Source: Gammaproteobacteria bacterium (lineage in GTDB: Bacteria; Pseudomonadota; Gammaproteobacteria; G965277405). Taken from it: DNA of 64,000 nt. The stretch covers positions 1,600,001 through 1,664,000 of the forward strand of contig OZ255726.1 of the NCBI GenBank assembly GCA_965277405.1, given 5' to 3'. Positions 4,886 through 16,887 of the stretch are shown one piece after another. Made by a program: the position numbers and the translations under genes. The notes beneath the pieces were generated by a model that did not search any database, was not told the DNA's origin, and saw only the letters and a list, made by a program, of their open reading frames with translations. Positions within the stretch are counted from its first letter, which is position 1. Each line of letters starts with the position of its first letter.

Positions 4886-5767
4886 ATGGAAGCAAAACCT
4901 TTTTTAAAATGGGCAGGAGGTAAAACTCAATTAATTAAGCAAATTAAAGTACAACTACCTGAAAACATAGAATTAGAAAATTTCACGTTTATAGAGCCTT
5001 TTGTAGGAAGTGGTGCTGTATTATTTTGGATGTTTAGTTATTTTCCAAATTTAGAAAGAGCTGTTATTAACGATATTAATGCTGACCTAATAAACTCATA
5101 CTTAACAATCAAAAATAATGTACAAGAATTAATAAATACCCTTGCTACTTGGGAAACTGAATACCATAATCTCGTAGATGATCAAGACGCAAAAAAAAAA
5201 TATTATTACGAAAAAAGAGCTCTTTTTAACACTCGTAATTCTGAGCAAACCACACAAAGTGCTTTATTTATTTTATTAAATAGAACTTGTTTTAATGGAC
5301 TTTATAGGGTTAACCTTAAAAATAAATTTAACGTGCCAATGGGGGCTTATAAAAAGCCTCAAATATGTAATACAGAAAACTTATTAGCAGTTTCTAAAAT
5401 TTTGCAAAAGGTTGATATTTTAAACGGGGATTTTTCTGAAACACTTCCGTATGCAACTAAAAATACATTTTTCTACTTCGACCCACCATATAAACCATTA
5501 AGTGAAACTTCAAGTTTTAATTCTTATGCAAAGGACAAATTTAATGATGCCGAACAAATAAGATTAAAAGAATTTTGCGATGTATTAAACGAACAAAATC
5601 ATCAATGGATTTTAAGCAACTCTGATGTAAAAGGAAAAGATCCAAATAATAATTTCTTTGATGACTTATTTGCAAATTTTAATATTATTAGAGTAAATGC
5701 TCGTAGAAGTATAAATGCAAACCCAAATAAAAGAGGTCGATTAACTGAGTTGTTAATTAGAAATTAA
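4886..5767 (+). CDS. Dam/DpnM-like alpha-class N6-adenine DNA methyltransferase (GATC)
   Basis: KPFLKWAGGK, EPFVGSG, CFNGLYRVN and YFDPPY motifs. Confidence 0.93.
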   Translation: MEAKPFLKWAGGKTQLIKQIKVQLPENIELENFTFIEPFVGSGAVLFWMFSYFPNLERAVINDINADLINSYLTIKNNVQELINTLATWETEYHNLVDDQDAKKKYYYEKRALFNTRNSEQTTQSALFILLNRTCFNGLYRVNLKNKFNVPMGAYKKPQICNTENLLAVSKILQKVDILNGDFSETLPYATKNTFFYFDPPYKPLSETSSFNSYAKDKFNDAEQIRLKEFCDVLNEQNHQWILSNSDVKGKDPNNNFFDDLFANFNIIRVNARRSINANPNKRGRLTELLIRN

Positions 5768-5770
5768 TCT

Positions 5771-6703
5771 ATGAAAAAAATTACTCAAATATTAAATCTC
5801 AATTCAGACAATGAGTTTTTTGATTATTTCAAGGACAATTTAAATTTAAAAGGAATTACTCAATGGAGCTATTTTGTGAATTGGGAAAAGGTATATAAAA
5901 ATGTTGTTCCTTTTGAAAAAGAACTAAACCTCTTAAATATACTTATAGGTAAAGAAAACATACAACAAGAATTAAGCAATTTAATTTTAGAATATCCTAA
6001 AGTAGTAAACGCTATTCCTTTACTTTTAGCAATTCGGTTTAAAAACAAAAAAGAACAAAAAATCAACATCTTAATCAATACTGTTTCTTATCAATACGAC
6101 AATTTTGATCTCTCTGTTGAAACACCCGATCAACAAGAAGCAGAAAACATTGCTACGTTATTTGTAAATACAGGTTTAGGTGAACTTGTTAGAGATAAAA
6201 AAATTAAAAACTTAGTAGATTTTGCAACAGGAGTAGAAGTTGGTTTAGATAGCAATGGTAGAAAGAACAGAGGTGGGCATCAAATGGAAAATTTGATTGA
6301 AGGTTATATTCAAAATGTTTGTAAAGAACAGAATTTACCATATTTAAAAGAAGCAAATGCTAAAGCAATTAAAGAAAATTGGAATATAGATTTAGAAATA
6401 GATAAATCTTCACGTAGAATTGATTATGTAATCAACAAAAATGGAAAACTTTACTTTTTTGAAGTGAATTTTTACAATGGAGGCGGATCAAAACTCAAAT
6501 CTACTGCTGCGGAATATGTTAAAATGAATGATTACTGGAATAAACAAAATATTGAATTTATATGGATTACAGATGGTGCTGGATGGCTAAAAACGTTATT
6601 ACCATTAAGAGAATATTTTGATAAAGCAGAGTATTTATTGAATTTAGAAATGTTAAAAAATGGTATTTTAAAAAAAATATTACTTATTGGTCTGAAGACT
6701 TAA
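5771..6703 (+). CDS. DpnII/MboI-family type II restriction endonuclease
   Basis: YFVNWEKV, GVEVGLDSNGRKNRGG..ME, EVNFYNGGGSKLK and FIWITDGAGW; lies between two MTases. Confidence 0.9.
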   Translation: MKKITQILNLNSDNEFFDYFKDNLNLKGITQWSYFVNWEKVYKNVVPFEKELNLLNILIGKENIQQELSNLILEYPKVVNAIPLLLAIRFKNKKEQKINILINTVSYQYDNFDLSVETPDQQEAENIATLFVNTGLGELVRDKKIKNLVDFATGVEVGLDSNGRKNRGGHQMENLIEGYIQNVCKEQNLPYLKEANAKAIKENWNIDLEIDKSSRRIDYVINKNGKLYFFEVNFYNGGGSKLKSTAAEYVKMNDYWNKQNIEFIWITDGAGWLKTLLPLREYFDKAEYLLNLEMLKNGILKKILLIGLKT

Positions 6704-6730
6704 ATTTTTTAATGCAGTAAAAAGTATTTA

Positions 6731-7594
6731 ATGATAAAACCCTATTTCAAATCAAAAGACAAAAAATTCTATCTTCTAAAAGGAAATACAATAGATTTAT
6801 TGCCAAAAATAAACCATAGGTTTGATATGGTTTTTGCAGATCCCCCATATTTTTTATCTAATGATGGATTATCAATACAAAACGGTCAAATAGTTTCTGT
6901 AAATAAAGGAAAATGGGACAAATTTAAAGATTATAATTCTGTGAATGATTTTAACCGAAAATGGTTAAAAGAAGTAAGAAAAAAAATGAAAGAGGATGCC
7001 ACTATTTGGGTCAGTGGCACTATGCATAACATCTTTAGTATTGGTCAAATTTTAACAGAATTAGATTTTAAGATTTTAAATATTATTACTTGGCAAAAAA
7101 CGAACCCACCACCAAATTTTTCGTGTCGCTACTTTACCTACTCTACCGAACAAATAATTTGGGCAAGAAAATCTAAAAAAGTTTCTCATTACTACAATTA
7201 TGAGTTAATGAAACAATTAAATGGAAATAAACAAATGAAAGATGTTTGGCAATTACCTGCAATTGCAAAATGGGAAAAATCATGTAAAAAACATCCAACA
7301 CAGAAACCACTGTCTGTACTTACAAGAATAATAATGGCTTCTACCAAACCCAATGCTTGGGTTTTAGATCCATTTGCAGGAAGTAGCACAACTGGAATTT
7401 CAGCTAATTTAGCATATAGAAGGTATTTAGGAATAGATCAAGAAACAGAGTTTTTAGAAATAAGTAAAAACAGAAAATTAGAAATACAAAACGAACAAAC
7501 TGCTGAAGCATATAGAAAAAAAATAGGCGGTTTTAATACTGAAAAAGAGTTTGTGAATTACTTGAAATCTGAACCTAACCAGGCCCATCTATAA
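6731..7594 (+). CDS. DpnA/MboC-like beta-class DNA methyltransferase
   Basis: FADPPYFLS, SVNKGKWD, KHPTQKP and VLDPFAGSSTTG motifs. Confidence 0.92.
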   Translation: MIKPYFKSKDKKFYLLKGNTIDLLPKINHRFDMVFADPPYFLSNDGLSIQNGQIVSVNKGKWDKFKDYNSVNDFNRKWLKEVRKKMKEDATIWVSGTMHNIFSIGQILTELDFKILNIITWQKTNPPPNFSCRYFTYSTEQIIWARKSKKVSHYYNYELMKQLNGNKQMKDVWQLPAIAKWEKSCKKHPTQKPLSVLTRIIMASTKPNAWVLDPFAGSSTTGISANLAYRRYLGIDQETEFLEISKNRKLEIQNEQTAEAYRKKIGGFNTEKEFVNYLKSEPNQAHL

Positions 7595-7910: not shown

Positions 7911-8120
7911 TCTGAATTCCTTATTTGGAGTATTTAGCTTTTATGATTGCAATAATGTAATAACATTACATTATTGTAGAGTCCAACCAAAAATTAAGTT
8001 TAGTGAAATAATATATCGGCGTCATCGGTGCTATGCAGGTGATTGTTCAGATATAACTGCTTGTTATTGAGTTTTTTTACCAGCGCCAAATAAGGCCAAC
8101 CGCCAGCGCAAATGGCCGCT
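7910..8120. repeat. ~210-bp direct repeat, copy 1 (duplicated promoter region)
   Basis: Near-identical to 8499-8707 (GTCTGAATTCCTTAT...CAGCGCAAATGGCCGCT). Confidence 0.95.
7952..7969. promoter_or_regulatory. Zur-like box (ATAATGTAATAACATTAC) in repeat copy 1
   Basis: Near-palindrome resembling the proteobacterial 18-bp Zur motif GTAATGTWATAACATTAC. Confidence 0.5.
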
Positions 8121-8496
8121 ATAAGGTGATGACAAAGTCGGGAATATTGCTGGAAAGGGCCGCATAAAGCTGGGGAAAACACCCCGCCTGCACACCATCG
8201 ACAGTATCTTTTGGTGTGACCTCGCCGCTTCCGCATTGTTCTAAGGTGCCATAGGCCATGTTGCGCCGAACGGCGCACTGGTCGCAGATCATGAGCAGGA
8301 TGTTTTGCTCCAGGGCAATTGCGGCGAGCCGTTCACCGATCGGATCACCCTGCCGTAGACAGAACATATTGTCGTCGAAGAAGAACATGCCAGCAATGGC
8401 CGCCCGGTGATTGCCCGCTTCGAGTTGCGGCAGGATCATTGTCCCTAGCTTGAATGTTGAGGCCATGTCGGTGGCGAAAATATATGCGATCTTCAT
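8119..8496 (-). CDS. DsrE-family sulfur-relay protein, SaoD-like
   Basis: MKIAYIF..., MILPQLE.G.H, GMFFFDDN, LLMICDQCA and AGCFPQLY. RBS AAGGA upstream. Confidence 0.75.
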   Translation of the reverse strand: MKIAYIFATDMASTFKLGTMILPQLEAGNHRAAIAGMFFFDDNMFCLRQGDPIGERLAAIALEQNILLMICDQCAVRRNMAYGTLEQCGSGEVTPKDTVDGVQAGCFPQLYAALSSNIPDFVITL

Positions 8497-9213: not shown

Positions 9214-9617
9214 TCAATAAACGATATTTTTTTTCTTTACGCTGTAGGGGATACAGCGCGGATGTGGCTGGTTTAAGAAAACCAATGGCAATGTGCGAAC
9301 ATTGGCTGCGCTAGTAAGCAGCAGGGCATACAAGTATTCGTTCCAGTTTCCAAGAAACATCATAATACCTGCAGTGAGGAGCCCTGATTTTACCAAGGCA
9401 GATTAATTTTGTTAAAAACCTCCCAGAAACTGGCTCCCTCGATATAAGCGGTTTCGCTCAAAAAATGCGGAATGAACATGAAGGTTGTCCTCAAAATAAA
9501 AATTGAAATGACCATACCAAATGAAAGACACACAAAGATCAGCTCAACTCTGGTATCGAAGAGACCCAAGACGTTGATCAAGGAAAATATGGGTTGGGCC
9601 TTGGGATGCACAGTCAC
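9214..9617 (-). pseudogene. Carbohydrate ABC permease (MalG-like) internal fragment, frameshifted
   Basis: LGLFDT, IP..LSETAYIEGAS (EAA loop), WNEYLYALLL and RTLPL, split over two frames. Confidence 0.75.
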
Positions 9618-10960
9618 TAGGAGGGTAATGGTGAAGGTAATCTAATGATATTTATTTTTCTCTTCTTCAGCATCCAAACAAACATTGCGTATGTAAGCAG
9701 GCTATCAAAGCCTATCCCAACACCAAACATGATAGCAATTAACTGCAGATTTGGAGTATAAATTCCAAACTTATATAATATAAATAGAGTTCCATAAAAT
9801 ATAGTATTAACTATGATAGACTGGAACAGCATATAATTAGATTTACCAATACCATAAAAAATACTGTCTATAACATTATTAAACGCAAATAAAATGTAAA
9901 ACAAAGTAGAAACCAAAACTATCTGATAGACATCTTTGTAGTTAGTGACATTCATAACATTTTTAATAAAAAATGTCCAATAAGGCAATGTACAACACCA
10001 GATTAACACGATTGCTCCACTTATAGTAAAGTACCCTAGAGTTCTCAGTTGGATCGCATCGTTCCCATACTCTCCACAGTCTTGCTTCACAAGTTGCCCT
10101 AGCTGAAGCACCGGCCATAACAGCCATCCCCAGATAAAACTGTTGGCAACCCAAAAAGTTCCAGGTTCACCTACAATATTAACCATTTGGAGAACCATTA
10201 ATATAAAAGCTGCATTACGTACAAGGCTTTCTAATCCAGAGTAACCACCTACCTTTAGCCATTCACGCATCCAGTTGAAGGATAATTTTTCATTAAAATC
10301 AATATTAAACCCTTCATTTTTTAAGAACAAAACCATTACAAATAATAAAATTATGTTCGTTATAATGTTACTGATAGCAATCCCTGTAACGCCTAAATCA
10401 AGTGATATAGGCAATTTTGAAACCAGAAAAGTATCCGTAAATACGGATAAAATCATTTGTAATACAAGGAACATGTATAAACACTTATATTTTTTTGTTA
10501 TTATAAGAACAAGCAGTAAAAACTGGACAACCGTAAAAAAAATCGATGCTATTGTTTCAAGTCGAATATAGTTTACTGTGACAGAAACAAGCTCATCCTT
10601 TTGCGCCATGAATACTGTTAATGGTTCAGTAAATAAAATTATGAAAGTTGAAATAAAAGCATATACCCCAAAAGTAACTATCATTCCTGTTTTTACTTTA
10701 TTTGCTAGTTCAATTTTATTTGATAAAGATTTACCCATAAGATAAAATAAAGGTAGCATTATTGCTTCCTGTAGCACCTCATATATTACATTTACCCAAG
10801 CCAACTGACTTGCTATATTGAACCCCCAATCTGTTGGCAAGTCTCCCAAAAAGTAAATTCGTACTGTTTTATATATTGTTGGGATTATACCAATAATCAT
10901 AAGAGCAGCTAAAAGCCTGAAATTAATCTGCTTTAATGAAATTTTTATACTTGTTAACAT
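9617..10960 (-). CDS. MATE-like multi-pass efflux/flippase protein (AT-rich)
   Basis: 447 aa with about 12 hydrophobic segments in two halves; LGVTGIAISNII motif. Confidence 0.7.
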   Translation of the reverse strand: MLTSIKISLKQINFRLLAALMIIGIIPTIYKTVRIYFLGDLPTDWGFNIASQLAWVNVIYEVLQEAIMLPLFYLMGKSLSNKIELANKVKTGMIVTFGVYAFISTFIILFTEPLTVFMAQKDELVSVTVNYIRLETIASIFFTVVQFLLLVLIITKKYKCLYMFLVLQMILSVFTDTFLVSKLPISLDLGVTGIAISNIITNIILLFVMVLFLKNEGFNIDFNEKLSFNWMREWLKVGGYSGLESLVRNAAFILMVLQMVNIVGEPGTFWVANSFIWGWLLWPVLQLGQLVKQDCGEYGNDAIQLRTLGYFTISGAIVLIWCCTLPYWTFFIKNVMNVTNYKDVYQIVLVSTLFYILFAFNNVIDSIFYGIGKSNYMLFQSIIVNTIFYGTLFILYKFGIYTPNLQLIAIMFGVGIGFDSLLTYAMFVWMLKKRKINIIRLPSPLPS

Positions 10961-11334: not shown

Positions 11335-12897
11335 TTATGGTGTTTCGTTAAAAATAACTCGCATCCCAATAGATGGTGAGCGGTGATATGCTGGTGCTTT
11401 GGCGATGTAGTCAATCCGTGCTCCTGTGGCGCCATCAACAACATAATTGCCACCTTTAACGACCAAAAAATAATCGTTTCTGCCAACCACAATTGAGCTG
11501 GTCCATTCAGAGACATTTCCTGCCATTGCAACAACGCCGTATGGGTTGACATCGTTGCGGCGATCATCTACCGCTAATGCCTTTGAATATGGAGCGCGGG
11601 AAACCACCAAAGCAGCATCAAAGATATTGCCCCATGGATATATGGTTGTACTGTTTGCTGCAAAAATGGCAGTCCACTGTTCTTGGGTAGGTAGCCTGCC
11701 GCCGGCCCAGCGTGCAAAAGCATCGGCATCCCACCAACTAATACCAGTTACTGGGGCATGAAGTTGGCTGAGTTGATTGCTCCATCGTGCTGGTGTGTAG
11801 TCATGGTTTGCAGGTTCTTTGGTGTTCGCATAAAACCCAAATGCTACCAATGGGTCACGCATGAAAGATTGATATTGAGATACTGTGATTTCATATTTTG
11901 AAATAACGAATGCTGTTGCTGGCTGATTTGGATGAAAAATATCTTTGATAGCTGCGTAGTCGGCTTTACGCAAGCCGCGCAGCATTGGCGGCAGCTTGGC
12001 TTGATCTGGCACTCCAAGCGTTACCGTTTTCGATGGTATAAATCGTGTCGTAGTCTCGCCCCATGGGGTGGGTTTGTCGGCAGCAGCAGTCGGCGGATAC
12101 ACGCAGCGAAACCCAACAAATTGTGAGCGAAAGTTTTGAGGAATTTGGCGGCGAATAAACCGTAGTGCGTGCAAAGAAGCTGGTTTACTCGCTCCATTGG
12201 CCCCCATTATCATCGATTGGTTCGTCCATTCAGAAACTCCAAAACCCATAGCTTGCACGCCTTCTGCGGTTGCCATGGTGGGGTAAACTGCGCAACTTTG
12301 TCCAGCATTTAACAATGGATTGGAAAACCGCCACGGCATGTTATTAAAGGTGTTTCCCCATGGGTAGATGCGGTCATCATTGCTGGCGGCAATTGCTTCC
12401 CATTCATCAGCACTTGGCAGCCGTCCTGCTGCTGCTGTACAATATGCCTGCGCATCGTAATGGTTTATTCCTGTGACTGGTGCGTTGCTTTTTCCAAGAA
12501 TTTTATGGGCTTGATAATCACTTTTCGGCTGCCAGTCAACAGGTGCCTGTGCTGGTCTCCATTGCTGTTGCAGATTATACAAACTCATATATTGCGCAAA
12601 TTCAGCGAATTTACTTTGGGTAACGGGGCATTGATCAACAGATATTGGCGGACGCTGGAACTCAGCAGCGCTGGGCTGTAACAATAGCGTGTCAAATGCA
12701 CTGCTGCGCTGTAGATATGCTAATTGTTGCATCAACACAGTATCAAGCGGGTGTTGCTGTGGTGCTGTTGCTGTGAGCGCGTTGATATCAATACGTTCGA
12801 TTTGTCGTGCGCTAATCCGATACTGATACATGGAAAATATCAGTATCACTACCATCAAACTTAAAAATAATATTGAAGAAACTCGTCGGATTGCCAT
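11335..12897 (-). CDS. Membrane-anchored protein with two tandem FGE-sulfatase (SUMF1/PvdO-like) domains
   Basis: N-terminal TM. Two repeats of PVTGI...DA.A.....GRLP...W, YPWGN, G.VSEWT, ending VGFRCV and IGMRVI. Confidence 0.85.
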   Translation of the reverse strand: MAIRRVSSILFLSLMVVILIFSMYQYRISARQIERIDINALTATAPQQHPLDTVLMQQLAYLQRSSAFDTLLLQPSAAEFQRPPISVDQCPVTQSKFAEFAQYMSLYNLQQQWRPAQAPVDWQPKSDYQAHKILGKSNAPVTGINHYDAQAYCTAAAGRLPSADEWEAIAASNDDRIYPWGNTFNNMPWRFSNPLLNAGQSCAVYPTMATAEGVQAMGFGVSEWTNQSMIMGANGASKPASLHALRFIRRQIPQNFRSQFVGFRCVYPPTAAADKPTPWGETTTRFIPSKTVTLGVPDQAKLPPMLRGLRKADYAAIKDIFHPNQPATAFVISKYEITVSQYQSFMRDPLVAFGFYANTKEPANHDYTPARWSNQLSQLHAPVTGISWWDADAFARWAGGRLPTQEQWTAIFAANSTTIYPWGNIFDAALVVSRAPYSKALAVDDRRNDVNPYGVVAMAGNVSEWTSSIVVGRNDYFLVVKGGNYVVDGATGARIDYIAKAPAYHRSPSIGMRVIFNETP

Positions 12898-14658
12898 TTA
12901 TTGCGCAAGTATTTTACGGCTATTATTCATTGTATTTCCAAACATGATGAAGATAAGAATCAGCGTAATTGCAATTCCTAACACCACATACAGCCATGTT
13001 AAATGGCTGGAATTGCGCTGTTTAGTAATGTCTGTAAATGCACTGGTCAGCGGTATTCCGTCAATCCGCACTTGGTTGACATCCGCAGGTATTTGCAGCG
13101 TACCGTTGGCAAAACCCGCAAAAATATATCCTAGAGTAACCTGTGCCATCGTTGGGTCGAATATCGCAACCGCACGCCAGCTCTGAGTTGTGTTGCCAAG
13201 GTCATCTGGATGCATCAACATAAAATAGTTGTCATACACAGGAATACGCTCACCACGATGAACATAAGGATACAACCGCAACAATACATCTGGTTTGCCT
13301 GCGCCCAGTTGTTGCCAGCTGCCAGTTTGCAGCGGTTTGCCAAGTAATGTCATGGTATGCAACGCTTGATTTGCTGGTACTTTATATATCAGCGGCGGTG
13401 ATGATTCTGATTGCAAGACTTCAATCGGCAAAGACGCTGCTGCGCTTTTTTGGGTGTTGCGCAGTACCAGCGCCATGCTTTTCACCCAGTTAGCAAGATG
13501 AAACTTCTGAATTGAATCTGGGTTTATAACAATCCTTGCAAGGAGCTGCTGCAGCTGTTTATAGTCAAATCCGCGTTGTAATTGGGCTGTTTCGATAGCT
13601 TGGAGTAAATACGTCAGCATCACTATTTCGTATTGCTCTGGTGGGATTTCTAATATTGTTTGCGGTGCACCGCTTGGTTGTGCAGGCGCATCTAAGTTTG
13701 GCAGATTTACCGAAAATTGGCGACGCTCATCTTGCGTTGATTTACCATTGCGCTGTTCATCAATCTCACCAAGGAGTTGCTCAAACAATGCTTGCCCACG
13801 GTTTTCGCCAGCGTCGAGTCCAGCAAGCTGTGGCTGGCTGGCTGCTGCGCTTTGACCATCGCCATCGCCCTGTGCTGCGGCACTTGCTGCGTGTTGTTCG
13901 ATGTTCGCCGGTGGAATAAGCGAATCATCTTCCAGAGCATTAAATGCATTCGGGTCAACGGCAGATGTTCCAGTTGGTAGATTAGCTCCGGCTAGATGGG
14001 TTTGACTGGTGCTACTGCCATCAGCTGCACTTTCTCCAGTTGTATTTCCAAGTTGTCCTGCTGCTAGTTGTTCAGCAAATGACTTGTTATCACCAATGCT
14101 TTGCTGGCGTGATGGAGGTGTATGCAATTCTCCAAGAAAATGCCAATGCCACAGCGGTGCGTTATGTTCGCGTAAAATGGAAATAGCTAAATAAAACATC
14201 GATATGTCGTATACATCAACGCGGATATTATTCACAAGCGTTGCATCCCATGTAGATATTAGTGCGTCAAACCGGTTGTCAGTTTGTTGTTGCAAGCCTG
14301 TCGCAGTAAAAATACTGCCGCTATTAAACTCACGAACAAACCCTTTATGCAGCTCGATGATCGGGTACAAACTCGGTTGGCAGTCGTGAGGAATCGAGCA
14401 ATCATGATAGTTGTGCAAATACGCAGGTTTGGAGCTTGGCAATGCATTCATCACCACAGAGTCGCTTATTTTTCTGGCCATAAGGATATTAAAATCCACC
14501 GCTGTGTTTATTTGTTCCTCTGCTTGTTGCTGTTTGATGGTGTATGACAGGGTGATTAACACCAACATCACCGCAACACTATTCGCCAAAATATCAGCTA
14601 ATGCAACGCCACCGCTGCTTAGCCAGTGTGATTTGTTACTGTGGCTGCGCCTAGTCAT
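12898..14658 (-). CDS. Hypothetical membrane protein with ExbD-like Asp-bearing N-terminal TM and a C-terminal TM
   Basis: 586-aa ORF with GGVALADILANSVAVMLVLITL, LHNYHDCSIPHDC and WHWHFLGE motifs, a low-complexity acidic linker and a C-terminal hydrophobic helix; coupled to its neighbours. Confidence 0.75.
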   Translation of the reverse strand: MTRRSHSNKSHWLSSGGVALADILANSVAVMLVLITLSYTIKQQQAEEQINTAVDFNILMARKISDSVVMNALPSSKPAYLHNYHDCSIPHDCQPSLYPIIELHKGFVREFNSGSIFTATGLQQQTDNRFDALISTWDATLVNNIRVDVYDISMFYLAISILREHNAPLWHWHFLGELHTPPSRQQSIGDNKSFAEQLAAGQLGNTTGESAADGSSTSQTHLAGANLPTGTSAVDPNAFNALEDDSLIPPANIEQHAASAAAQGDGDGQSAAASQPQLAGLDAGENRGQALFEQLLGEIDEQRNGKSTQDERRQFSVNLPNLDAPAQPSGAPQTILEIPPEQYEIVMLTYLLQAIETAQLQRGFDYKQLQQLLARIVINPDSIQKFHLANWVKSMALVLRNTQKSAAASLPIEVLQSESSPPLIYKVPANQALHTMTLLGKPLQTGSWQQLGAGKPDVLLRLYPYVHRGERIPVYDNYFMLMHPDDLGNTTQSWRAVAIFDPTMAQVTLGYIFAGFANGTLQIPADVNQVRIDGIPLTSAFTDITKQRNSSHLTWLYVVLGIAITLILIFIMFGNTMNNSRKILAQ

Positions 14659-15194
14659 TGGCTGGGATCATGCAAAATTGTTGTGCGGATAGAGCGCTTG
14701 ACCTCTGCTGGAATTTCATCCAGATTGATGGCTTTGAGCAGTTGCTCATTGGCAATAATCCAGCCGATTACTATAGGCTGTCTGCCAAGTACCGCCAACA
14801 TGCAGTTCCTTGCGATTGCCATGGTGCCAACCCCACCTTCGGTAATCGCAAAAATCAATTGCGATGTTTGCTTGGAATATATTTGTCTAATATAGTTTAC
14901 AAATGCACTGTTGGGCAGACAAATTTTATCGGGTGCTACCGAGGTATTTTGCTGCAAAATTTGCAAATGATCGGCGAACGTTAACACTACAAACCCTTCG
15001 CTGCCGTTTTCCCATGAAATCCTATACGCGCTTTCTTCGCTGGCATCATCTAGCATCGCGGTAATTTCATTATCGGTAATGGCATTCATCAACACCAATA
15101 GAATCAATAGCAAGCCAAACGCACCGCCGAATATTTCTACCATTGGCACGTTGATTGAGTCACGAATACGAATAGAACGTTTTGGCGTTCTCAT
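14655..15194 (-). CDS. Small single-TM ExbD/TolR-like hypothetical protein
   Basis: Basic N-terminus, then INVPMVEIFGGAFGLLLILLVLM; directly follows the ExbB-like gene. Confidence 0.65.
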   Translation of the reverse strand: MRTPKRSIRIRDSINVPMVEIFGGAFGLLLILLVLMNAITDNEITAMLDDASEESAYRISWENGSEGFVVLTFADHLQILQQNTSVAPDKICLPNSAFVNYIRQIYSKQTSQLIFAITEGGVGTMAIARNCMLAVLGRQPIVIGWIIANEQLLKAINLDEIPAEVKRSIRTTILHDPSQ

Positions 15195-15202
15195 GTGCTA
15201 TG

Positions 15203-16300
15203 TTACTTGCTGTTATGCATTAGTGATCTGCTTTTGAATAGTTGCTCAGCATCTGACAAGTTGCGGTCTTCCCAACGTTGAAATAACGTTTGTACCAGCA
15301 TCAATACAACAGAAAGTGTCAAGGCAACAAGTGTGGTATCAAAGGCAATACCTAATGGTGATATTGCCGCACCTAGCCCCGAGCTGAGGCTGGTTTCACT
15401 CGTTGAAATAATTAAACCAATGCTTTCAGCTGCGAGTGAAATCCCCAACACCGTGCCAATAAATCCTAGAATAGGAATCGACCAGTTGATATAGCGTGGG
15501 ACGGATAAGAAAAAATCTGCCTTCTGCCACGCTAGATCAAATAGTCGCTCTACTGATTGTGCGGTGCTGTCGCCTTTTTTTTGCAATGCAAGATATGCTT
15601 GTACTAGCACCGCAGTATTGATATCAATGTTGAGTTGATCAGCAGCAAATATTTTTTTCCACTCGCTTTGTAACTGCAACCACTTACCAAGGAACAAGAA
15701 AATTGCCCAAAAAAACATCACTAAAATAATCGGTGGAATGACGCCACGTTGCACCAGTTTTGTGTGCAATATTGCAGCAAAAGGTTGTTCTGCAAATACC
15801 ACCAATACCACCATAACAATGCTGGTTAATAGCACCGACACACACACTGGCAGTGCTAATGAAGGACCTGCAAATAACCCATGCAGCAATGTCGACGCAT
15901 CGAGTTGCTCATCTTGTTTGACCAGCTCAAGCTGCATCACGCGCAAACACGCACTTAATCCCAGAGAAAAAATAAGTGTCGTCATATGAGCTGGTAAAAA
16001 CACCTTTCCTTGTGAAAGCCATTGGTATAAATTGGTAAAGGCAACTGCAACGGTAATGAATAATACTACGGTACCAACTGTCATGTTTAAGTGAATAATT
16101 CGTTGAGTCGGGCCTTGAGAAAGCCCAAGCATTGGGGCAATAGCAAACGCAGCACCAATACACGTGCCGACATAAAAAAAGTTTGGTTGTAAAATCCAAC
16201 CAAGACCAGAAAGGGCTGCGATGTAAAAGAGTATTGCGAGTAAGAAAATGAGTCGCGTCATAGTTGTTAGACCGTCAAAAAAAGGCAGTATCATATACAA
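15203..16300 (-). CDS. MotA/TolQ/ExbB proton-channel family protein with extra N-terminal TM helices
   Basis: C-terminal signature IPILGFIGTVLGIS...LGIAFDTTLVAL. Confidence 0.85.
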   Translation of the reverse strand: MYMILPFFDGLTTMTRLIFLLAILFYIAALSGLGWILQPNFFYVGTCIGAAFAIAPMLGLSQGPTQRIIHLNMTVGTVVLFITVAVAFTNLYQWLSQGKVFLPAHMTTLIFSLGLSACLRVMQLELVKQDEQLDASTLLHGLFAGPSLALPVCVSVLLTSIVMVVLVVFAEQPFAAILHTKLVQRGVIPPIILVMFFWAIFLFLGKWLQLQSEWKKIFAADQLNIDINTAVLVQAYLALQKKGDSTAQSVERLFDLAWQKADFFLSVPRYINWSIPILGFIGTVLGISLAAESIGLIISTSETSLSSGLGAAISPLGIAFDTTLVALTLSVVLMLVQTLFQRWEDRNLSDAEQLFKSRSLMHNSK

Positions 16301-16607
16301 CTTCTCAGCAACTAGTTGCTGATTGTCGCGATGCTTTAATATTAAGTATCAGTTGTATTGCACTGCAAAATAATCACAAACTGTATCCTGGCGCAGCTAT
16401 GCCTGCCAAGTTTGCAGGTTTCATTGCGCTCCAACATCACAAAACTGTATCACATTGATGGCTGGATAGATGTCAGATTAAGCAAAAATGTGCGCGTTTG
16501 TTATTGGCTAGCAGCGCTTGTATGGTTGCTGTTGGTGTTGACGCGACTGCGGCTGTCGTTGCGAACAAGGCGTGGCAGAATGTTGCAGAGCCGCGATTAT
16601 TGTTTAG

Positions 16608-16887
16608 GGAACCTCTGATTAAGTCGCTGATGGAGCGAGTTTGATGGCAATTGCTGATGATTGCAAGGCGCAATCCGCTAAGCGCATGCTGTAGCATATA
16701 CGCCAAGGGATGCAACACAGCAATTACCATCAAACCCAAAGTATATTCAACAGAAGGACGGGAAAAAACGCTGCGCTAACGTCGTTGCAGCACTTAATAA
16801 TACCACCAGTATTATCTGCGCACTGCGTCTAGTTATCATCAGCGTTTTTTCTCCGTCTCGCCCATCATGGACTTAATCAGAGGTTCC
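16608..16887 (+). mobile_element. MITE copy inserted in the last codons of bolA
   Basis: TTAG|GGAACCTCTGATTAAGTC...GACTTAATCAGAGGTTCC|TTAG. Confidence 0.95.

Follow-up and report, generated by a model that had tools for sequence, protein, structure and literature searches.

The four-gene cassette

The window analysed here, a stretch of 64,000 nucleotides from a Gammaproteobacteria bacterium (assembly GCA_965277405.1, contig OZ255726.1, positions 1,600,001 to 1,664,000), carries on its minus strand a compact cassette of four genes (Table 1). They encode a channel subunit of the MotA/TolQ/ExbB family, two unequal partners with a predicted likeness to TolR and ExbD, and a membrane-anchored protein with two FGE-fold domains. 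The best reading of this cassette is an undescribed variant of the 5:2 motors, one that would work like TolQR/ExbBD and be laid out like AglRQS. The source genome is a single contig of 2.17 Mb, 98% complete. From gene 1 to gene 4 the reading frames are separated by an 8-bp gap, a 4-bp overlap and a 0-bp gap; coordinates and spacing, recomputed here, agree with those of an initial annotation made from the sequence alone. Gene 1 is 365 aa long when read from a TTG, while the protein on record (P0005) has 363 aa and begins at an ATG two codons later; its residues are numbered below as in P0001. A hydropathy scan counts 8, 1, 2 and 1 transmembrane segments (TMs) in genes 1 to 4, respectively, and a promoter and terminator scan of the cassette returned nothing usable. 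Among sequencing runs, three with a match are listed, all from one study, and no RNA run, a result that carries no information on expression.

Table 1. Genes of the cassette, with positions counted from the first letter of the window
Gene	Position	Strand	Description
Gene 1	15203-16300	minus	MotA/TolQ/ExbB-family channel subunit; 8 predicted TMs, 5 of them extra and N-terminal; PF01618
Gene 2	14655-15194	minus	179 aa; short single-TM partner with TolR/ExbD-like periplasmic domain; TM Glu20, Cys92, Cys131
Gene 3	12898-14658	minus	586 aa; long partner; N-terminal TM with Asp22, TolR-like domain 58-176, C-terminal TM
Gene 4	11335-12897	minus	520 aa; N-terminally anchored; two FGE/SUMF1-fold domains

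The putative ring subunit

Gene 1 scores above the threshold of PF01618 (25.6 bits, cut-off 22.9, E 1e-5), and 7-8 hydrophobic segments are found in 85 of 95 homologues. Its last two TMs align with the pore helices of the source genome's own TolQ, ExbB and MotA, with Thr283 and Thr323 in register with the channel threonines of those proteins. The channel signature preceded by additional N-terminal helices, which the initial annotation had read in this gene, is thereby borne out. Both threonines are kept in 96/96 gene 1 loci; these loci were partly selected by this motif, but alignment A1 and the loci selected through gene 3 agree, and AFDTT occurs in every one of the 14 loci that were chosen by gene 3 and contain gene 1 (among them that of the window). 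Asp321, two residues before the second channel threonine (Thr323), is likewise invariant, and the Glu of the TolQ/ExbB AEAL motif is absent. For ExbB-ExbD, Asp25, Thr148 and Thr181 are described as essential (PMC12905483).

Homologues of gene 1 number 836 among 8,000 scored candidates, the nearest to the window's copy being 52% identical. A single-sequence query of viral contigs returned no relative, and the profile of alignment A1 gave 0 matches at E≤1 among PDB sequences. The best NCBIfam and PADLOC matches of gene 1 are to ZorA and are weak (E 0.005-0.05; 14.8 bits against a cut-off of 100); for the cassette as a whole, these collections yield below-threshold resemblances only, to ZorA, SenA, EgtB and GldK.

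Two unequal partners

Neither gene 2 nor gene 3 has a Pfam match at E≤0.1, and PF02472 (ExbD/TolR) matches neither. The ExbD-like character ascribed to them in the initial annotation is instead suggested by predicted structures. The gene 2 model (mean predicted local distance difference test score, pLDDT, 72.8) is a TM helix followed by an alpha/beta domain; that of gene 3 (pLDDT 75.6) comprises a long N-terminal helix, a similar domain, a linker, a helical bundle, a beta region and a C-terminal helix. Of 48,161 chains searched by fold, E. coli TolR (5by4) came first for both, weakly in each case (gene 2: Z 7.4, root-mean-square deviation 2.6, 81 residues aligned; gene 3: Z 6.9, 3.6 and 98). 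The nearest Atlas cluster with a family has ExbD in 10% of its members (score 0.76), which is a lead only; residues 335-586 of gene 3 gave no usable Atlas match, and the whole-model fold searches barely covered that region.

A complex of gene 2 with residues 10-183 of gene 3 scores 0.70, against 0.06 for the best control; the runs share at least 34% of their contacts, and the partner pLDDT is at least 59. Among solved pairs 116 of 157 reach the pass mark, among mismatched ones 2 of 215, figures that apply only approximately to alignments of the kind made here. The interface would bring residues 73-83, 149-157 and 174-179 of gene 3 against residues 112-133 and 140-152 of gene 2, and these segments are the conserved ones. 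Genes 2 and 3 are accordingly modelled as a heterodimer. A direct profile match between them (probability 99.9) was discarded as an artefact of the fused record P0249, without which it is insignificant. In two records, P0249 and P0275, gene 3 is fused to a piece of gene 2. The first has the look of a frameshift; in P0275 the TM half of gene 2 runs in frame into the portion of gene 3 that follows the gene 3 TM, which could be a natural chimera or a fault of assembly.

The partners differ most in the acidic residue of their N-terminal helices. The initial annotation had placed an essential-type acid in both; this stands for gene 3, whose Asp22 is present in 92/92 homologues, and fails for gene 2, where the 92 homologues divide at position 20 into 65 with Glu, 23 with Ala, 3 with Ser and 1 with a gap. 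In a tree of 89 rows (unrooted; seven loci excluded for missing parts), the rows with Ala or Ser fall into two distinct clades with strong support, one of 23 rows and one of 3. Because distant gene 2 homologues mostly have Glu, the direction is taken as Glu to Ala/Ser, and the residue would have been exchanged through at least two independent changes. With Glu20 so often Ala or Ser, gene 2 is therefore not a second equivalent ExbD. It keeps both Cys92 and Cys131.

In gene 3, His82, His171 and His173 of the periplasmic TolR-like domain are invariant (92/92) and form a possible metal site. Asp148, Tyr84 and Tyr156 accompany these histidines. The distance from the TM Asp to an LP-type motif is 51 residues in all 91 rows where the motif is found, and the motif may be the counterpart of the NIBS strand of ExbD/TolR (PMC12905483). 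An acidic, low-confidence linker follows at about 185-310, and a second, C-terminal TM, unmentioned in the initial annotation, lies at 556-574; a C-terminal TM is present in 80 of 84 homologues.

The FGE-fold protein

Gene 4 matches PF03781 twice (E 1e-44) in what are two homologous FGE domains, and an N-terminal TM is found in 74/74 homologues, just as its earlier description as a membrane-anchored tandem FGE fold had it. FGE itself is defined by two active-site cysteines that bind copper (bioRxiv 10.1101/2021.05.21.445229). The catalytic cysteine motif occurs in 0/74 gene 4 homologues, and the four conserved cysteines, at 90, 153, 202 and 265, all lie in the first domain. The FGE domain has a C-type lectin fold (PMC7159879). 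No FGE-domain gene besides gene 4 was found in the source genome. A proposed link to GldK/GldJ comes down to the shared FGE fold: gene 4 scores 20.5 bits against the GldK model TIGR03525 (cut-off 350), and a lipobox-like pattern occurs in just 1 of 74 homologues.

Conservation as a unit

A GTDB scan confirmed 194 loci, and the counts given here rest on the best 80 of these 194. The order 1-2-3-4 is complete in 69 (one of them, L044, in broken pieces); seven more are cut by a contig end, two have no adjacent gene 4 and two hold gene 1 alone, so that the four-gene synteny named as a check in the initial annotation is indeed found. The close metagenome loci number 16, of which 9 have the full cassette, 6 are truncated and 1 has no adjacent gene 4; a further 64 from metagenomes, being distant relatives or fragments, were left uncounted. 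Both genomes with gene 1 alone at the locus (G403 and G404) hold genes 2-4 elsewhere, the gene 4 match of G404 spanning one stop. In an even sample of the class (400 genomes, with one further genome unscored), separate searches with the gene 1 and gene 3 profiles converge on one set of 15 genomes, the source genome among them, each with a single copy. In the single-contig genome G108 the four genes are scattered at about 347, 1120, 1960 and 1174 kb, without internal stops; that all four are kept though scattered shows an interdependence beyond linkage. No fifth conserved gene accompanies the cassette: real neighbours are lineage-specific and occur in at most 14 of 96 loci, and the cassette keeps housekeeping neighbours that are fixed by lineage. 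Large clusters of neighbouring frames, considered as further cassette genes, were rejected as shadow frames.

For the 14 closest pairs per gene, the ratio of nonsynonymous to synonymous divergence (dN/dS) ranges over 0.02-0.30, 0.01-0.21, 0.05-0.43 and 0.05-0.26 for genes 1 to 4. Purifying selection, as the initial annotation proposed, is thus upheld by close homologous pairs (0.01-0.43 overall), and the argument that it had drawn from a region full of pseudogenes is not. The window's coding fraction, computed from open reading frames (ORFs) of at least 100 aa, is 0.81 against 0.84 for the genome and falls within the 0.75-0.92 range of 64-kb tiles, so a pseudogene-rich region is not shown and that argument, the coding deficit being slight, is dropped.

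Carriers and spread

By their record titles, carriers are almost all uncultured Gammaproteobacteria known as metagenome-assembled genomes (MAGs); among them are Ca. Oxydemutatoraceae, Porisulfidus, Poriferihabitaceae, Azotimanducaceae, Thioalkalivibrio sp. HK1 and Gsub. Porisulfidus is a known sponge symbiont (PMC12988363), Poriferihabitaceae have been recovered from sponge (PMC12859430), and Gsub (locus L067) is described as a symbiont of a cold-seep sponge, reduced and lacking genes for flagella and pili (PMC5361782). The strongly reduced genomes among the carriers include that of a cold-seep sponge symbiont with 1,370 genes, and some carriers are labelled just marine metagenome. The remaining carrier names are presumably linked to sponges as well, and most carriers of the cassette would thus be uncultured members of lineages associated with sponges.

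One MAG protein from Bacteroidota and one from Hyphomicrobiales are among the distant homologues of gene 2. Within the family proper, two copies, one labelled Myxococcota and one Spirochaetota, each fall among gammaproteobacterial copies but at different positions, and grouping the two is rejected by the approximately unbiased test (p-AU 7e-31; 34-row subset, quick unrooted tree). A strong gene 2 match occurs in 2 of 301 genomes of the Myxococcota-labelled carrier's phylum. Separate nesting and the rejected grouping together point to at least two cross-phylum transfers, with the proviso that the 13-kb spirochaete contig may be mis-binned.

Surroundings and other machinery of the carriers

Searches of carriers ran on MAGs that are 92-100% complete, in which "not found" is not the same as absent. 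Judged from their sequences, separate genes of the source genome encode TolQRA, ExbBD-TonB, a further ExbBD and a MotAB pair. A flagellin match occurs in 1 of 14 class-sample carriers and in none of the source genome's frames, VipA of a type VI secretion system (T6SS) in 0/15, and PilT over its cut-off in only 2/15; the PF03934 test for type II secretion gave short, unspecific matches. TonB-dependent barrels are present in 15 of 21 carriers, dozens of them in some, and are unmatched in the other 6, four of which are single-contig genomes. In G056, G280 and G358 the sole PF01618 matches are gene 1 and one strong match taken for TolQ.

Four further features of the source genome were recorded in passing. 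At C1:862663-867385, in the exbB-exbD-tonB locus, a full exbB is followed by about 2 kb ending in a second copy of the exbB 3' part and then by exbD. At C1:1146318-1152905 a MotA/MotB pair precedes genes resembling MoxR and vWA; flagellin, as noted, has no match in this genome. The five TonB-dependent barrel matches (e.g., C1:352104) are similarly long frames of 1,110-1,161 aa, and an ORF at C1:872373-872831 consists largely of a tandem 8-residue repeat.

Closer to the cassette, none of the TonB, receptor, TolB/Pal, flagellar and OmpA families was found in the eight flanking ORFs scanned, in agreement with what had been noted from the sequence. Downstream lie a DpnII-type restriction-modification trio (window 4886-7594, about 4 kb away), a SaoD/DsrE gene (8119-8496) and a MATE transporter (9617-10960), none of which was seen as a conserved neighbour in the neighbourhoods of the 96 loci. 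About 300 bp upstream of gene 1, at 16601-16845, stands an interspersed repeat of about 245 bp, with 243 blastn matches in the genome (177 of at least 200 bp) and 12 in the window.

A proposed mechanism and its alternatives

Taken together, sequence conservation, the models and analogy with known motors suggest, with a probability of roughly 0.55, an asymmetric 5:1:1 ion-driven envelope motor in which gene 3 would itself serve as the transducer and gene 4 as a binding head without catalytic activity. The cassette would build a self-contained inner-membrane motor of the 5:2 type with an unequal axle. By analogy with ExbB, TolQ and MotA, gene 1 would form a pentameric ring, entered by one N-terminal helix each of gene 2 and gene 3, whose TolR-like domains are predicted to pair in the periplasm. 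Ion coupling would involve the conserved Asp22 of gene 3, the ring threonines and probably ring Asp321, the acidic residue of gene 2 being optional. No transducer of the TonB/TolA type is encoded, and gene 3 probably does that job itself: its long acidic linker would lead to a folded domain pinned to the membrane by the second helix. Anchored at both ends in this manner, the gene 3 arm would be strained or reeled in by movement of ring and axle. Gene 4, as a binding head of FGE/C-type-lectin fold, would probably be the load or an adaptor. The likely job would be mechanical work on envelope or surface components needed for life in a host, rather than receptor-mediated uptake, swimming, twitching or T6SS.

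Several observations weigh against this proposal. The TolR matches of genes 2 and 3 are weak, and a Z below 8 can mean no more than a shared alpha/beta arrangement; neither model had a Foldseek match at E≤0.001, and profile-profile comparisons of gene 2, gene 3 and ExbD are insignificant (probability <7%). The pass of the predicted complex may owe something to likeness with solved ExbD/TolR dimers. Over all pairs with a synonymous difference (pS) of 0.05-0.6, the median dN/dS is 0.40-0.60, a value attributed to saturation, and no pair involving the window's copy is close enough for the calculation (nearest homologue 52% identical). Gene 4 is tied to the motor by synteny and co-retention only. 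Finally, since AglQ and AglS each keep a TM Asp, the loss of the gene 2 Glu fits symmetric stepping badly, and a gate or sensor is possible.

Just such a sensor is the subject of an alternative that we consider unlikely, an ion-gradient-gated sensor or channel, and no force generator, in which gene 4 would bind a periplasmic ligand and the gene 3 histidines a metal, together gating the gene 1 pore. It would account for a dispensable acid in gene 2 and for the three histidines invariant in 92/92, and distant gene 1 relatives do adjoin kinases, FHA, PP2C, kinase-FGE fusions, GYF_2 and GAP1-N2 proteins. However, no kinase, phosphatase or other signalling gene is among the conserved neighbours of the four-gene form, the C-terminal tails of genes 1 and 3 are short, and the motor threonines and Asp22 are fully kept. 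Another reading takes genes 2 and 3 as alternative homodimeric axles of one ring, giving two motors, the gene 2 form being inactive or regulatory in the Ala/Ser clades; whether AglQ and AglS are homo- or heterodimeric is described as unsettled (PMC9389320). This arrangement is improbable given that the heterodimer passes its modelling test (0.70 vs 0.06) and that an Ala-bearing gene 2 homodimer would have no axle carboxylate, yet gene 2 is conserved in the 23-member clade.

A Zorya-like anti-phage or anti-competitor sensor-motor is less probable still. ZorA is the best, if weak, named match of gene 1, the cassette is scattered patchily over genomes and seems to have crossed between phyla, a DpnII system is some 4 kb off, and FGE-fold proteins are reported both as T6SS immunity proteins (bioRxiv 10.1101/2021.05.21.445229) and as effector domains in conflict systems (PMC7159879); against these stand a ZorA score far below its cut-off, a gene 1 without the long cytoplasmic tail, no OmpA-like domain or effector gene found in the flanks or among conserved neighbours, and a cassette that is single copy, sits among lineage-fixed housekeeping genes and is retained when scattered. 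The chance is just as slim that the cassette is a specialised Ton-like energiser for outer-membrane uptake of host-derived compounds. The barrels of 15 in 21 carriers and the ExbD/TolR-like fold as top match speak for it, but 6 of 21 carriers have no barrel match, TonB_C has no match in the cassette, and the source genome has ExbBD-TonB genes of its own. The cassette anchors also have no SHLS motif: a His is found in only 4 of the 75 anchors of gene 4 and in 3 of the 85 C-terminal TMs of gene 3.

The asymmetric 5:1:1 motor admits a bolder version, which we regard as doubtful: a distinct motor class with a single obligatory axle carboxylate and an aspartate ring, without symmetric two-Asp stepping, with a double-anchored, possibly metal-gated pulling arm and a lectin-fold head. 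Such a motor would have moved from phylum to phylum within sponges, and even genomes of 1.5 Mb would retain it because a common but unrecognised step in colonising the sponge would depend on its drive. On the question of how 5:2 motors turn ion flow into force, a family in which one axle helix has repeatedly exchanged its acid while the ring Asp stays invariant allows the alternating two-Asp rotary model to be tested directly. With its four genes the cassette is also a compact marker, retained in strongly reduced genomes, and a concrete candidate for a shared symbiosis function; annotation pipelines miss it because two of its four genes read as "hypothetical".

Comparison with known systems and distant relatives

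The closest functional parallel is with TolQ-TolR(-TolA) and ExbB-ExbD(-TonB). Like these, the cassette has a ring subunit of PF01618 that keeps both channel threonines, single-pass partners whose top fold match is TolR, the TM Asp of gene 3, and an LP linker motif resembling that of the source genome's own ExbD/TolR. Gene 1 differs in having eight TMs rather than three, and AFDTT with its invariant Asp in place of the AEAL(I/L)AT pattern; the cassette has two unequal partners, one often without an acidic residue, and gene 3 bears some 400 extra residues and a second TM. Ton and Tol-Pal are defined by a TonB/TolA transducer with the SHLS His and by linked receptors or TolB/Pal, none of which the cassette shows; it has a tandem FGE-fold partner.

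In layout, Myxococcus AglRQS comes nearest, with one ring gene and two different TolR-like genes; AglR5-AglQ-AglS has been modelled as a heterodimeric insertion, at similarly low identity to TolR (PMC11761067, PMC9389320). The resemblance drawn in the initial annotation holds to this extent and ends at the axle: AglQ and AglS, like TolR, are each described with a conserved TM aspartate (PMC9389320), whereas the gene 2 Glu is often Ala or Ser. No Glt-type gene was seen as a conserved neighbour of the cassette, a statement about neighbourhoods, as no genome-wide Glt search was made. The TolQ-linked vWA transducers offer TolQ-like rings, heterologous partner pairs and a partner that is possibly a force transducer, but both trans-pore helices there keep Asp (PMC12204202). 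The main text of that paper does not mention FGE or formylglycine, and genes 2-4 have no vWA Pfam match, the C-terminal region of gene 3 having been searched only within the whole model. Bacteroidota GldLM-GldKN, of gliding and type IX secretion, likewise links a 5:2 motor to an FGE-fold protein and has a protonatable ring residue (GldL E49, PMC8986121); gene 1, however, belongs to the MotA/ExbB family and not to GldL, and gene 4 is TM-anchored, tandem, without a lipobox and far below the GldK cut-off.

Zorya joins a ZorA with a long tail to a ZorB with an OmpA-like domain and to effector genes. Zorya ZorAB and Salmonella SiiAB resemble the cassette as MotAB-like motors repurposed for defence or, in SiiAB, adhesin handling; the cassette differs from both in having no ZorA tail, OmpA-like domain, linked effector or type I secretion genes. 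Judged by its sequence, the cassette falls outside Ton, Tol-Pal, Agl, Gld and Zorya alike. No description of it was found in open-access PubMed Central (PMC) and bioRxiv, supplements and subscription papers lying outside this scope, in keeping with its initial annotation as a candidate undescribed machine. None of ExbB, TolQ, MotA and sulfatase is mentioned in PMC5361782 on Gsub, nor MotA, TolQ or ExbB in the conflict-system paper PMC7159879.

Related arrangements do recur at a distance. At L113, L116, L117, L119, L120, L124 and L128, distant gene 1 relatives are followed by two dissimilar genes for partners with a TM Asp; L113 and L119 have confirmed GYF_2 proteins as neighbours, and L119 includes a GAP1-N2 protein. 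Two unannotated partners likewise go with other MotA-like genes, at L160:8049-9240 and L133:7062-8257, and at L160 one partner has a TM Asn and the other an Asp, a parallel asymmetry. Distant MotA-like genes directly preceded by kinase-FGE or PEGA-FGE genes (L111:7480-11707, L112:14-3011, L118:2-4111) indicate that the FGE-MotA link recurs outside the cassette. Heterologous partner pairs are already in print for systems of the vWA type (PMC12204202); with the distant relatives that have two dissimilar partners, they suggest that this layout is part of a wider, poorly described group. What is particular to the cassette is the combination of an 8-TM ring with AFDTT, an optional Glu, a double-anchored, His-bearing partner and a tandem FGE head.

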